Source: a virus
Taxonomy: Duplodnaviria > Heunggongvirae > Uroviricota > Caudoviricetes
Reading direction: 5' to 3' (one strand)
Length of the DNA stretch: 9,592 bases
Virus record (IMG/VR): IMGVR_UViG_2657245439_000005
Part shown: piece after piece, positions 2,889-6,313 of the stretch
Numbering within the stretch: the stretch's first letter is position 1
Layout of the letters: every line of letters starts with the position of its first letter
Made by a program: the position numbers and the translations under genes
The notes under the pieces: model-generated
The model's input: the letters and a program-made list of their open reading frames with translations, nothing else
Database searches by the model: none
Told to the model about the DNA's origin: nothing

Positions 2889-3251
2889 TTAATGACCTGC
2901 TGCGCGTAGTTTTTCGTCAGGTTCACCGGCAAGAGTCAGTAATTGTCCCTGGTCTTCCTGCAGAATAGTCAGGCGACCACCGCGATTGACATACATCGGC
3001 GTTTCGGTGGTGTCTTCTTCGGAAATTTTCCCGCGGTTAGTCGGGCGAACATATGAGAGTTTGTGTTTGATTTTCACACGGTTCTCATCAAATGGTTCGA
3101 TTTCCAGGTTGAGTGAGACCTTACCTTTGGTTTTCGTGTTCATCACACCGGAAGCGACTTCACTGAGAACTGCGCCGATTTTGGTTTCAAATACGCCGCC
3201 GTCCAGCTCCCCGATAAATGCCTGCACATCAGTACTGCGTTCGCTAGCCAT
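2889..3251 (-). CDS. First gene of the leftward operon, 120-aa phage protein (YfdP-like by size and position)
   Basis: Internal ATG at 3251-3249 is preceded by AGGAG (minus strand reads aggagcagcaaaATG). The longer 197-aa ORF to 3482 has no RBS and its extension looks non-coding. Confidence 0.7.
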   Translation of the reverse strand: MASERSTDVQAFIGELDGGVFETKIGAVLSEVASGVMNTKTKGKVSLNLEIEPFDENRVKIKHKLSYVRPTNRGKISEEDTTETPMYVNRGGRLTILQEDQGQLLTLAGEPDEKLRAAGH

Positions 3252-3386
3252 TTTGCTGCTCCTCATCATATCGACCCTGCAAGGTCGGTTGGTTTCTCCA
3301 CAAAACAGAGAAGAACACCTGCGGTGGCAGCCGCCCGGATGGATTGGGTTATGAGCCCGTCGTCCGGTGATGCTCTTCTCTGTTTT

Positions 3387-3434
3387 ATAAAAAGAGCGGT
3401 ACCAGCCGGAAGCAAGTGTACAAACTGGTACCGC
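3387..3434 (-). terminator. Terminator-like hairpin in the left-operon leader: 10-bp arms GCGGTACCAG / CTGGTACCGC with a 19-nt loop, followed on the minus strand by TCTTTTTAT
   Basis: Arms at 3396-3405 and 3425-3434 are exact reverse complements; the U-rich tract follows on the minus strand. The loop is large for a canonical intrinsic terminator. Confidence 0.3.
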
Positions 3435-3535
3435 CAAAGCAGTGGCTGTTGTGGTGGGGTTGTCACTCAGGCGTATGGTCAACCTGACAATCCGGTGTCC
3501 TCAACGGGGAAAGAGTAACCCAGCCATACTTACCG

Positions 3536-3572
3536 CCGCGCCATTTCGCGGATGACCACAACGCTGAGAGCA
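3536..3572 (-). promoter_or_regulatory. Candidate nut-like site on the leftward leader: boxA-like TGCTCTCA, then a boxB-like hairpin CCGCG-aaatgg-CGCGG about 13 nt downstream
   Basis: Minus strand reads gTGCTCTCAgcgttgtggtcatCCGCGaaatggCGCGG. This resembles the boxA/boxB layout of lambdoid nut sites but the match to consensus is weak. Confidence 0.2.
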
Positions 3573-3852
3573 CTTAGCCAGTTACGGCACCACACTTTGT
3601 CGCGGCTCCATAAATGCCCTCATCGTTGCACCCTGGTCTCTTCCCAGGCGTCAAACCGGATCGCCACGCTGGTTAGGCGTCTTATCAGCATCATCATTGA
3701 CTTGCACATTCCGGCTACCTGGTTTGTTTGCCCTAGCAAGGAGTGGATTGTTCCCTTTAACGTCCCCAGACCGCTAACGACGCATGTGCCATACGCCGTG
3801 TTACAACCAAATTTTGTTTGAATCTTGCCTGCCTCATGTTTCTTTTGGATAC

Positions 3853-3880
3853 ATTATGTATCTCATGGGTACATTGTCAA
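3853..3880 (-). promoter_or_regulatory. pL-like early-left promoter: -35 TTGACA (plus 3875-3880), 16-bp spacer, -10 CATAAT (plus 3853-3858)
   Basis: Minus strand reads ttttttatacTTGACAatgtacccatgagataCATAATgt. Perfect -35, 5/6 -10. Overlaps an operator-like palindrome. Confidence 0.5.
3856..3874. promoter_or_regulatory. OL-type operator ATGTATC-tcatg-GGTACAT (7-5-7), same architecture as the OR sites
   Basis: Sits between the -10 and -35 of the pL-like promoter. An adjacent palindrome GATACATtATGTATC lies at 3848-3862. Confidence 0.5.
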
Positions 3881-3907
3881 GTATAAAAAAACCTGCCGAA
3901 GCAGGTT
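3881..3907 (-). terminator. Rho-independent terminator immediately after the cI stop
   Basis: Minus strand: 7-bp stem AACCTGC/GCAGGTT with loop TTCG, followed by TTTTTTA. Lies 13 bp past the cI stop codon (3920-3922). Confidence 0.7.
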
Positions 3908-3919
3908 CATAAATATTGA

Positions 3920-4594
3920 TTAGGCCTTTATTGTGTATCTTCTTGGTTTTCCCGAGAAAATCACTGTACCAATTATAGAGCAATTACCGTTAATCTTAAT
4001 GTAAGGCTCAGGCCAGTTTGGGTTTAATGCTTTGAGATAACGCTGTGTTCCATCTTCTATCAATCGCTTGAAGGTGGTTTCGCCTGTATCGTGCATCAAT
4101 GCAATAACGTCGTCACCGTGGCAGGCAGGGACTTCGGGATCAACAAAAATCATGTCTCCAGGGCGGTACTCATCAATCATTGAATCACCAATCACCCGCA
4201 AGATATAAGTCATTTCGCCACAGGGTACAGGGCAGGGATACGTTTCTGCTGTGCTCAAATCAACCTCAGAATAGCCAACTTCTTTCCATGCTCCGGCCTG
4301 TACCCATGATATGACAGGGACTAACGTTATTTGTTTGTTAGTGATTGAAACATCAGGTTTTTTTGTGATGTTCGTTGTCTGGTGTTCTTGATCAAGCCAT
4401 CCGACAGGCAGGTCGAAACATTTTTCGATGTGCCGTGCCATGCTGTCACCGATATTTTTAGTAGCGCCATCCCCCATAAACCTGCTGGTTTGGGTTGGCT
4501 CGCGATCAATCATGGTGGCAAAGGATGAATTTCCGCCAACACCATCTCTCAGTTTTCTGGCGTTAGACCGCCGGATGTCATGGATTGTTTTCAT
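3920..4594 (-). CDS. cI: CI-type prophage repressor, HTH N-domain plus LexA-like S24 peptidase C-domain (224 aa)
   Basis: C-terminal half has the S24 autopeptidase signature (GDSM serine, downstream Lys in TFKRL) and a candidate Ala-Gly cleavage site (VQAGAW). Divergent from the cro-like gene; 224 aa as I recall for e14 CohE. Confidence 0.9.
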   Translation of the reverse strand: MKTIHDIRRSNARKLRDGVGGNSSFATMIDREPTQTSRFMGDGATKNIGDSMARHIEKCFDLPVGWLDQEHQTTNITKKPDVSITNKQITLVPVISWVQAGAWKEVGYSEVDLSTAETYPCPVPCGEMTYILRVIGDSMIDEYRPGDMIFVDPEVPACHGDDVIALMHDTGETTFKRLIEDGTQRYLKALNPNWPEPYIKINGNCSIIGTVIFSGKPRRYTIKA

Positions 4595-4684: not shown

Positions 4685-4885
4685 ATGAAAGCGTATTGGG
4701 ACTCTTTAACCAAAGAACAGCAGGGCGAGTTGGCCGGAAAAGTTGGCTCAACACCTGGCTACTTACGGCTGGTTTTCAATGGTTATAAAAAAGCCAGTTT
4801 TGTGCTGGCGAAAAAACTTGAGCAATGCACGTCAGGTGCAATTACGAAATCTGACTTAAGACCGGATATCTATCCGAAAGATTAA
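4685..4885 (+). CDS. cro: Cro-like small HTH repressor (66 aa; Cro/YdaS-type)
   Basis: ATG at 4685 with GGAGG upstream. Divergent from cI across the operator region. The longer ORF from 4580 overlaps cI and is rejected. Confidence 0.8.
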   Translation: MKAYWDSLTKEQQGELAGKVGSTPGYLRLVFNGYKKASFVLAKKLEQCTSGAITKSDLRPDIYPKD

Positions 4886-4916: not shown

Positions 4917-5480
4917 ATGAGGCTAACCGTGGGTAAGTATCACTGGAAAGTAGAAAAACAGCCTGAGTGGTACGTGAAAGCTGTCAGAAAAACTATCGCA
5001 GCGTTGCCGGGTGGTTACGCTGAAGCAGCTGACTGGCTGGATGTAACAGAGAACGCATTATTTAACCGCCTTCGTGCCGATGGCGATCAGATTTTCCCGC
5101 TGGGATGGGCAATGGTTTTACAGCGCGCGGCTGGCACTCACTACATTGCGGATGCTGTCGCACAGTCTGCTGGTGGGGTGTTCGTATCGCTTCCTGAAAT
5201 TGAGGAAGTAGAGAACGCCGATATAAACCAGCGCCTGCTGGAAGTCATCGAACAGATCGGGAATTACTCAAAGCAGATTCGTTCGGCAATCGAAGATGGG
5301 GTCGTGGAGCCACACGAGCAGACAGCAATTAATGATGAGTTGTATCTGTCAATTTCGAAGCTCCAAGAGCATGCAGCACTGGTCTACAAAATCTTTTGCG
5401 CTCCAGAAAAGAGTGACGCCCGCGAGTGTGCAGCTCCGGGCGTCGTGGCGTTTTGTGTCTGTGGAGAAACTAACGCATGA
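4917..5480 (+). CDS. CII-like / YdaT-family phage regulator (187 aa), in the position of e14 ymfL
   Basis: Second gene after cro. N-terminal segment (PGGYAEAADWLDVTENALFNRLR) looks like a CII-type HTH. Family assignment is from memory. An alternative GTG start at 4929 has a better SD. Stop overlaps the next gene (ATGA at 5477-5480). Confidence 0.65.
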   Translation: MRLTVGKYHWKVEKQPEWYVKAVRKTIAALPGGYAEAADWLDVTENALFNRLRADGDQIFPLGWAMVLQRAAGTHYIADAVAQSAGGVFVSLPEIEEVENADINQRLLEVIEQIGNYSKQIRSAIEDGVVEPHEQTAINDELYLSISKLQEHAALVYKIFCAPEKSDARECAAPGVVAFCVCGETNA

Positions 5481-6313
5481 ACAGTTTAACGGCAAATAAC
5501 CGTTTGTCGCAACAGCTGGTGGTCAGTGTCGCTGAACACCTGTTGTTACGGCATGAATGCAGATTACCAAATCACCTGGCTGTAAGTAACCACAGAGAAC
5601 TTTACCTGACTGTGGGGGGCGAGTTGTGCGGGAACTTAACCGCTGGTTTCGTGACGGAAGAGGGCTTTATGTCCATGTTATTCGTTGGGAACCAGAAACA
5701 CAGCGCGTTATCTATCTTCGCAAAGACTACCCGCATGAGTGCTTTAGTCCTTTGTGGAAATTCAGGCGTGATTTTGTTGAGTGTGAAGGACCACCAGCAC
5801 ATTGATTCTGCCATTCCGGGACGTTACACTGTTCAGGCACCTTATAAAGCGGGTGACGGGATTGGCGTCCTGGAAATGTTATCGGCGATATATGACGCGC
5901 CAGCGTCTTTTTTATCGTCTGCGTCTGTGCACACCCAAATTATGGTGGGCTGGACGGGGGCACCGAAAGGTGCGCCGGTTTCCGATAACGCCGGTTACGC
6001 CAACCCCGTTCAGTTCACCACCAGCGAAATTGGCGTTTCCGGTGGTGAAGGTAATTCACTGTTATCGGAGGCTGCCATCATGGCTACTGTCCCAGCCCTC
6101 ACTCGTCTGAATGATGAAGACTTACATAAACTCAGTTATGTAACAACTGCACTACGTGCTCTGCGCAAGGTAACTCTTTCGGATCCGCAGGCGCATCAGG
6201 TTTTGGTAGAAACCCTTCTTAACTTGCAGGCTGAACGTATTCGTCTGGCGGATAAGGCTAATTTTCATATTCACCGTCTCCTGAATATCAGCGGAGGGCA
6301 TCGTCATGCTTAA
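5477..6313 (+). CDS. Hypothetical protein (278 aa), unassigned
   Basis: Long ORF coupled at both ends (ATGA at 5477; 8-nt overlap with the next gene). Weak GGAG 10 nt upstream. C-terminal half has a Gly/Ala/Pro-rich linker then a helical-looking tail. The N-terminal third is ambiguous because of a competing frame (see findings). Confidence 0.5.
   Translation: MNSLTANNRLSQQLVVSVAEHLLLRHECRLPNHLAVSNHRELYLTVGGELCGNLTAGFVTEEGFMSMLFVGNQKHSALSIFAKTTRMSALVLCGNSGVILLSVKDHQHIDSAIPGRYTVQAPYKAGDGIGVLEMLSAIYDAPASFLSSASVHTQIMVGWTGAPKGAPVSDNAGYANPVQFTTSEIGVSGGEGNSLLSEAAIMATVPALTRLNDEDLHKLSYVTTALRALRKVTLSDPQAHQVLVETLLNLQAERIRLADKANFHIHRLLNISGGHRHA

Follow-up and report, generated by a model that had tools for sequence, protein, structure and literature searches.

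A modular and conserved non-coding RNA leader upstream of the early left operon in a lambdoid prophage immunity region

Background

About 600 nucleotides (nt) separate a pL-like leftward promoter from the first gene of the left operon, a yfdP-like gene, in the virus record IMGVR_UViG_2657245439_000005 (Caudoviricetes), and the question raised by this locus is what so long a leader contains and how the genes beyond it are reached. The window, meaning the whole stretch of 9,592 nt that was analysed, is the immunity region of a lambdoid prophage of the SfV, cdtI or 2H10 type. An earlier note on this DNA had proposed a nut-like site and antitermination-controlled early expression for the leader (3880-3252, minus strand). 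The leader, its promoter and its terminator were all borne out, while the reading of a nut site with a boxA was not. Instead, the leader was found to consist of four RNA modules designated X, Y, T and U, which are encoded on the minus strand, conserved, constrained as RNA and recombine independently. Homology to the dicF locus of the Qin prophage and to the ban leader of P1, which the earlier note had missed, explains this anatomy better.

Structured RNA modules of the leader

Module X (3798-3566, minus strand) is a conserved structured RNA of about 235 nt without an Rfam match. It begins with hairpin H1 (3798-3778) and a helix, P2, that closes a variable hairpin, followed on the same strand by an invariant stretch of 19 nt, GGUAGCCGGAAUGUGCAAG (3719-3701), a hairpin CCUGG-GAAGAGA-CCAGG (3648-3632) with GCAAC after it, and a covarying closing helix, GAGGGCAU/GUGCUCUC (3621-3614 and 3573-3566). 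A single 17-mer from X had matches in at least 120 viral contigs, yielding 144 distinct copies that fell into 41 clusters. In the five-helix structure of the 41 representatives 97.9% of cells were paired compared with 25-43% in slid controls, and double-sided changes were present at 10 pairs in 83 cells, which was reached by 0 of 500 shuffles. The many G-U pairs formed on this strand indicate that the constraint acts on the leftward RNA. In the loop of H1, GCAC can pair with an invariant GUGC in GGUAGCCGGAAUGUGCAAG, with both sides unvarying, and this may represent a pseudoknot or an alternative fold.

Module Y (3562-3448, minus strand) forms a pseudoknotted domain closed by the helix GUUGUGG (3562-3556) with CCACAAC (3454-3448). 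Its inner parts include the hairpin CCGCG/CGCGG, a long-range helix CGGU/ACCG, a GGG/CCC hairpin and the hairpin UUGUCA/UGACAA, whose CCAUAC loop pairs with an upstream GUAUGG to give the pseudoknot (100% paired). Compensated changes between the lambdoid and P1 types were seen in this last hairpin and its loop helix, and for Y overall 95.4% of cells were paired compared with 29-61% when slid, with double changes at 7 pairs. Positions 3562-3456 were 91.6% identical over 107 nt to Escherichia coli K-12 DNA located between ydfC and dicB in Qin, directly upstream of dicF. The homologue of Y in Qin is the 5' part of the 190-nt DicF precursor, and the "dicF-like region" of P1 is a relative. A strong intrinsic terminator was located 50-85 nt after Y in 154 of the 154 copies at the loci examined, comprising 73 terminators of the DicF type, 65 that were T-like, 8 that were P1-like and 8 others. 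Two further ideas on Y were discarded. A tRNA-like identity was dropped because the CCA after the closing helix is not kept in Qin-type copies, and an anti-terminator role, with GGCGGUA of Y competing for the 3' strand of T, was rejected because the P1 terminator is unrelated to the P1 Y.

Module T (3435-3389, minus strand) occupies the DicF position and is a putative 3' small RNA. The earlier note had recognised a terminator-like hairpin with a U-tract here, and the fold supports it, the hairpin GGCGGUACCAG...CUGGUACCGCU at 3435-3395 having a 13-bp stem (-21.2 kcal/mol, z = -3.1) and being followed by CUUUUUAU. T starts with UUUGGCGGUAyCAGUUU like DicF and diverges beyond the first 20 or so nt. 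It also shares the genomic position of DicF in following a Y-type domain, ending in an intrinsic terminator and being followed by a long hairpin of the RNase III type. The stem covaries across the Enterobacterales with double changes at 4 pairs.

Module U (3392-3296, minus strand) is a long hairpin with 24 consecutive base pairs at its base, where the U-tract of T is paired to GUGGAG. Its top forms a three-way junction consisting of a CCGGA/UCCGG arm with the hairpin GGG-CUCAUAA-CCC and a variable GCGG/CCGC hairpin. The fold in the window had an energy of -56.3 kcal/mol (z = -5.0), and in 19 loci from many genera the stretch from the U-tract of T to GUGGAGAA formed one long hairpin. For T and U together in these 19 loci, 97.4% of cells were paired compared with 43-52% when slid, and 57 cells at 18 pairs were doubly changed, a result obtained in 0 of 500 shuffles. 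Helix 7 of this alignment was a small covarying hairpin, CGACC-UUGCAG-GGUCG (3287-3272, minus strand). U was always linked to yfdP-like genes, as far as Kosakonia and Mangrovibacter, and by analogy it is likely a substrate for RNase III. The covariance analysis across related prophages that the earlier note had suggested therefore returned compensatory base changes in all four modules.

Mosaic distribution of the modules

A BLAST comparison of the leader with 116 loci carrying yfdP-like genes divided it into three independently recombining blocks. The block at 3960-3823 moves with the SfV-type repressor gene, that at 3827-3437 was found in some phages only, and that starting at 3456 or 3436 and ending at 3252 invariably accompanied the yfdP-like gene. 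The nucleotide identity of this last block was 70-87% in Mangrovibacter, Kosakonia, Leclercia, Phytobacter and others, while the protein encoded there had just 60-75%. Some part of the leader was present in 4703 of 5426 complete E. coli genomes and parts occurred in many phages as well, and the conservation of the leader is far beyond chance.

The contexts of X differed between phage groups. It followed pL-type promoters in lambdoid prophages, immediately preceded tRNA-Arg(UCU) in phiV10 and SPN9TCW, which are epsilon15-like phages, and was located after trnI in P1, P7 and D6. In phiV10, SPN9TCW and Phytobacter the slot of Y was taken by a tRNA, with X on one side of it and a T-like terminator on the other. 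In phiV10 (locus L120, 1861-2021) tandem intrinsic terminators at 1861-1903 and 1983-2006 were located between the X-tRNA-Arg unit and the next gene on the same strand. A much longer leader was observed in Phytobacter ursingii (locus L102, 1600-2510), in which X is followed by some 400 nt of additional structured sequence that includes another copy of the X 3' half, and then by a tRNA in the Y slot, T, U and a yfdP-like gene.

These distributions bear on a reading in which T is a mere insulating terminator and X and Y are functionless remnants of recombined RNA genes, such as the flanks of tRNA genes or of dicF. Mosaic junctions at the module borders and the location of X beside tRNA genes would be accommodated by it, whereas compensatory changes and 19-nt invariant stretches are kept in phages as distant from one another as P1, the epsilon15-likes and the lambdoids. 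Such retention indicates purifying selection on the RNA fold, and functionless remnants are accordingly an improbable account of the leader.

None of the modules corresponded to a catalogued RNA family. X, Y, T and U were unmatched in a permissive Rfam scan of 3200-3960 on both strands (E <= 10) and of the window (E <= 1), the hits within the leader being sub-threshold chance matches, and a scan of 20 related loci at the Rfam 15 gathering thresholds returned only tRNA, DicF (in K-12), C4 and isrK. A search of the window for tRNA and transfer-messenger RNA genes gave none. The small RNAs AgvB, AsxR and Pas were considered as relatives of the leader and set aside, as they sit at moron sites of the late region. 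Enterobacterial-type yfdP loci were also encountered in contigs filed as Fredinandcohnia humi, Chryseobacterium sp. 18061 and Martelella alba (loci L096, L104 and L099/L101), and that of F. humi included 240 nt 100% identical to E. coli yfdP. These three yfdP-bearing assemblies are probably contaminated.

Coding potential of the leader

A long untranslated leader before the ATG at 3251 had been described, with the suggestion that it might encode a small RNA or a small protein. The distance from the probable transcription start near 3846 to the first AUG was about 595 nt, and among the open reading frames (ORFs) of 3252-3880 on both strands none stays in frame in diverged copies. Two of these ORFs carry gene calls, "phage protein" or "hypothetical protein", in the public records of 2H10, cdtI, PhiR40_1 and Ayreon. 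A 39-amino acid ORF (3620-3739, minus strand) is annotated as a hypothetical protein in Ayreon and an 89-amino acid ORF (3552-3821, plus strand) is annotated in 2H10 and cdtI-like records, and both coincide with module X. The existence and annotation of these frames are what an explanation by small leader-encoded proteins has in its favor. Against it, diverged copies have stops or non-triplet insertions and deletions (2, 3, 4, 5 and 7 nt in the variable hairpins), substitutions track base pairing and not codon positions, and the translations have the high content of R, H, C and P that non-coding DNA would give. The two ORFs are very probably not genes and the calls in public records spurious, and protein-coding by the leader is very improbable. 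The suggestion of a small or structured RNA was supported by these results while that of a small protein was not.

Tests for nut and put elements

The leader does not include a nut site of the lambda type with boxB and a single-stranded boxA to which NusB-NusE can bind. The sequence taken for boxA in the earlier note, TGCTCTCA (3572-3565), lies on the 3' strand of the covarying helix GAGGGCAU/GUGCUCUC that closes X, and other lineages keep this helix by double changes to GAGCGCAC/GUGCGCUC, AAAGGCGU/GCGCCGUU or AAGAGCAU/GUGCUCUU. The rrn and lambda boxA consensus TGCTCTTTAACAA (searched as CGCUCUUA or UGCUCUUUAACAA) was not matched with up to 3 mismatches anywhere in 3252-3880, and the three matches with up to 3 mismatches elsewhere in the window were at chance level. 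One of these, GACTCTTTAACCA at 4700-4712 (plus strand, 3 mismatches), is located inside the cro-like gene on the rightward transcript. The GC hairpin of the earlier note (3551-3536) is no boxB, being Ya, the first stem of the pseudoknotted domain Y, and the place of an arginine-rich N-family gene first after pL is taken by the yfdP-like gene. An N-type system, with nutL in the leader and an N-like protein encoded outside the window, would have position on its side, as the leader follows pL and TGCTCT equals the first six boxA bases. Since the octamer is base-paired and covarying, the neighbouring hairpin belongs to Y, and SfV, cdtI and Ayreon annotate no N in the left operon, this explanation is extremely improbable.

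Elements of the put type were searched with a covariance model (R1) built from 21 aligned put sequences, gathered as put-like elements from viral contigs. The positive controls scored 90.9 bits (HK022 putL), 46.5 bits (HK022 putR) and 89.2 bits (HK639 putL), while the window, the P1 leader, Qin and the phiV10, SPN9TCW, Kosakonia and Phytobacter loci gave no hit at E <= 10. The put signature TAAACCATGCGTCGG was absent from the leader, as was the combination that marks the family, namely stem I GUCGAACGGCGCGAC, the linker UAAACCAUGCGUCGG and a stem II with GGCGGG...CGGCAAU. The sequence GCGCGGCGG common to Y and HK022 putL was considered as a link to put and rejected by the put model. At 1200-1284 of locus L400 and 2775-2859 of locus L417, both viral contigs, stem I and the UAAACCAUGCGUCGG linker were directly followed by an rrn-type boxA, CGCTCTTTAACAA, replacing stem II, and this put variant may be a hybrid put/Nus element. 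The HK639 record (L346, 37910-37969) has an "M3-like RNA" annotated after a cII-like gene in addition to its putL-like RNA.

The YfdP-like protein was examined as a hidden antiterminator. It is acidic and without a match to N, in agreement with the earlier observation that no N-like gene is visible, and its predicted model, a long helix with a three-stranded sheet (predicted local distance difference test score 74), had no match in the PDB at E <= 0.001. The candidate was rejected on this result. Taken with the R1 null result, this indicates that no antiterminator of a known kind, be it RNA or protein, is present.

RNA-based processive antitermination by a new element would have X, Y or both bind the transcribing polymerase in the manner of HK022 put and so pass T and later terminators without N. 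The support for such a mechanism is positional, X and Y being near early promoters and upstream of terminators that would have to be passed. Strong promoters end 6-35 nt before H1 in several X contexts, in P1 some 45 nt separate the Pban start from Y, each copy of Y precedes a terminator with genes beyond, and strong terminators were found within 430 nt downstream in 25 of 41 X contexts compared with 11 on the reverse strand and 7 in shuffled sequences. The two terminators that separate X from the next gene in phiV10, the absence of an N-like gene together with a first gene of unrelated fold, and the long invariant unpaired stretches, which fit a specific macromolecular partner, are also in keeping with this. 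Weighing against it are the lack of similarity to the put family, the situation in Qin, where three ORFs and about 800 nt separate Y from the promoter, and the replacement of Y by a tRNA, which would be odd for a polymerase-binding element. The rightward operon of the window also lacks a second copy, its cro and cII-like genes abutting. Partial leakiness of T would be sufficient for expression and would serve equally well as the antitermination control put forward in the earlier note, for which neither a nut site nor a put-family element was found. Antitermination by the leader RNA is thus a rather unlikely explanation. It is similarly doubtful, although conceivable, that X and perhaps Y belong to a novel type of RNA element in phages, with the transcription complex or RNA processing as its target, which would drive expression of exchangeable cargo (tRNA, Y or small RNA) and permit read-through of the terminators embedded there. 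If this were true, X and Y would be a functional counterpart of put and nut common to lambdoid, P1-like and epsilon15-like temperate phages.

Proposed function of the leader

The reading we favor, with moderate confidence, is that the region is a non-coding early-left leader cassette of the dicF type, in which a processed small-RNA precursor is combined with T as an attenuator and U as a gate. It is backed by the mosaic distribution, the homology of Y to the DicF precursor, the constant location of Y before a terminator, the similar arrangement behind Pban in P1, covariation rich in G-U pairs on this strand and the non-coding nature of the leader. In Qin, DicF derives from a polycistronic transcript as a 190-nt species with an RNase III-dependent 5' end and a 53-nt species that is RNase E-dependent (PMC10448788), and besides the 53-nt terminated form RNase III generates a 72-nt form out of transcripts that have passed the terminator (PMC5069750). 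Hfq binding is likewise known for the DicF of Qin (PMC10448788, PMC5069750).

By analogy, leftward transcription from a repressor-controlled pL would give a single RNA folding into X, Y, T and U, and part of the transcripts would stop at T as a non-coding RNA of about 460 nt. Its processing would follow that in Qin, with RNase III acting near the closing helix of X and RNase E between Y and T, and would yield a long species spanning Y and T together with a short, U-tailed small RNA from T. Transcripts passing T would fold U, the base of which takes up the U-tract of T, and an RNase III cut in U would part the small RNA from the yfdP message as for the 72-nt DicF. With termination at T and cleavage in U, T would attenuate and U would gate expression of the left operon. 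A base helix of 24 bp that begins with the U-tract is in line with the 72-nt DicF described as a product of RNase III, and we infer from this likeness that U has an RNase III site and could act as a processing and translation gate. A precursor of stable RNAs would also be in keeping with the tRNA that replaces Y in phiV10, SPN9TCW and Phytobacter. As a working guess, X and Y may be folding and processing scaffolds that also keep the long untranslated RNA free of Rho loading sites.

Several points weigh against this dicF-type reading. The diversity of Y is low, being essentially E. coli lambdoid and P1 types, so the covariation seen in it reflects a small number of events and lends moderate support. 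The Rfam DicF model (RF00039) left T unmatched in the window at E <= 10, whereas the control on K-12 scored 76.7 bits and was placed at the Qin locus (L117, 3133-3184). The 3' part of DicF is complementary to the ribosome-binding region of ftsZ, and a duplex of T with the -70 to +40 region of ftsZ was no better than with shuffled sequences, in a crude test where DicF itself was only marginal (p of about 0.1). T may have other targets, or be only a terminator. A scaffold role leaves the very strongly conserved unpaired stretches of X and Y unexplained, and for this phage the proposed start site, the cleavages without exception and how well T terminates are carried over from Qin.

The surrounding immunity region

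The near-consensus leftward promoter of the earlier note was recovered by the promoter scan as a pL-like sigma-70 promoter at 3880-3853 (minus strand), with TTGACA at 3880-3875, a 16-nt spacer and CATAAT at 3858-3853, matching 11 of 12 consensus positions. A perfect palindrome, GATACATAATGTATC (3862-3848), overlaps the -10 element and is a likely operator, and pL is likely repressor-controlled. Transcription would start near 3846. Directly upstream of the pL region is the gene for a cI-like repressor with an S24 peptidase domain (3920-4594, minus strand), and the intrinsic terminator closing its transcript (3908-3889, minus strand), found in the promoter and terminator scan, adjoins pL on its upstream side and is also annotated as such in SfV and phage Ayreon.

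Downstream of U, the Shine-Dalgarno (SD) sequence GAGG (3264-3261, minus strand) and a spacer precede the AUG at 3251 of the yfdP-like gene (2889-3251, minus strand), which is first in the left operon, has its own ribosome site and encodes 120 amino acids (PF27127, phrog_204). It is followed in the left operon by genes for YfdQ (DUF2303), a YfdR-like HD phosphatase and DUF551 proteins. To the right of pL are the cro-like gene (4685-4885) and the cII-like gene (4917-5480). Rfam matches above the gathering score were observed on the plus strand for isrK (5837-5913, 55.4 bits) and the C4 antisense RNA (5938-6025, 82.8 bits), both inside the called ORF 5477-6313 (Ash family, with an "immunity region" annotation in SfV). 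These matches suggest an RNA switch like that of P1 immI on the right arm.

Comparison with known systems

The small RNA gene dicF has so far been treated as an oddity of defective prophages. The leader indicates that the whole dicF spacer belongs to a modular, widely shared non-coding cassette that opens early operons of active temperate phages such as the SfV, cdtI and 2H10 types, Stx2c phages, P1 and the epsilon15-likes. X and Y are strongly conserved RNA motifs outside Rfam, of which Y is pseudoknotted and X possibly so. They are the best candidates for how polymerase passes a long untranslated terminator-bearing leader in lambdoid phages without N, and for how phage small RNAs and tRNAs mature.

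The Qin dicF locus shares with the window a pL-like, repressor-controlled promoter, dicBp (PMC10448788), the homologous Y (91.6%), a degenerate X 3' half upstream of it and a terminator hairpin in the same place opening with UUUGGCGGUAyCAGUUU. The Y-T-U order is that of the ydfC-dicB spacer, and a long hairpin, GAAUUUUGUGAUG/CAUCACAAAAUUC, likewise extends from the U-tract and ends immediately ahead of the dicB SD. In K-12, a distance of 190 nt measured backwards from the DicF terminator leads to or beside GUGCGCUUCC|GGUUGUGG, the homologue of window 3573-3556 at the junction of the X and Y closing helices, so that the 190-nt species would have its 5' end at this junction as derived from lengths and not from a published coordinate. 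The two loci differ in that the small-RNA part of the window diverges after the first 20 or so nt, with the Rfam DicF model silent and no ftsZ complementarity above shuffles in the crude duplex test. The window also has a full X, no ydfABC genes ahead and a yfdP-like gene downstream in place of dicB, and the sequence of the long hairpin in Qin is unrelated to U. In K-12 the X remnant, upstream of the 190-nt precursor (L117, 2900-3000), retains CUGAaaagUCAG, CAUAAC and GAAAGCGCAU, and beside it is an apparent partial duplicate of the start of Y, which was also seen in loci L247 and L270.

In the P1 record (NC_005856) the C1-controlled Pban/Op72 (68651-68696) is followed by the "dicF-like region" (68791-68892), which consists of a Y homologue and an unrelated intrinsic terminator, and then by trnA, trnT, tciABC, trnI, a partial X directly after trnI, and ban. 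The arrangement of a C1-repressed early promoter, a Y homologue, a terminator and genes reached through it is that of the window. In P1, however, Y and X are 2 kilobases apart with tRNA and tci genes between them, Y is without the closing helix and X ends after the GGAAGAG hairpin. In P1-type plasmids (L119 at about 3200-3280, L162, and P1 itself, L345, at about 1700-1795) GAUUUUCUGGUGAUGA after the shortened X, just before the ban ribosome site, resembles the DicF 5' end UUUCUGGUGACG.

The put elements of HK022 and HK639 differ from the leader in sequence and structure, for which the window had no match, and resemble it in being structured RNAs of similar size located just after pL in lambdoid phages without N, with terminators following. 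Members of the put family bring about read-through of terminators by way of the beta' zinc-binding domain of the polymerase. The N leader of lambda contains nutL and, ahead of the ribosome site of N, a hairpin sensitive to RNase III. The leader described here is without boxA, boxB and an N gene, and it has in common with that of lambda a long hairpin that follows the early promoter, precedes the SD of the first gene and is plausibly cut by RNase III.

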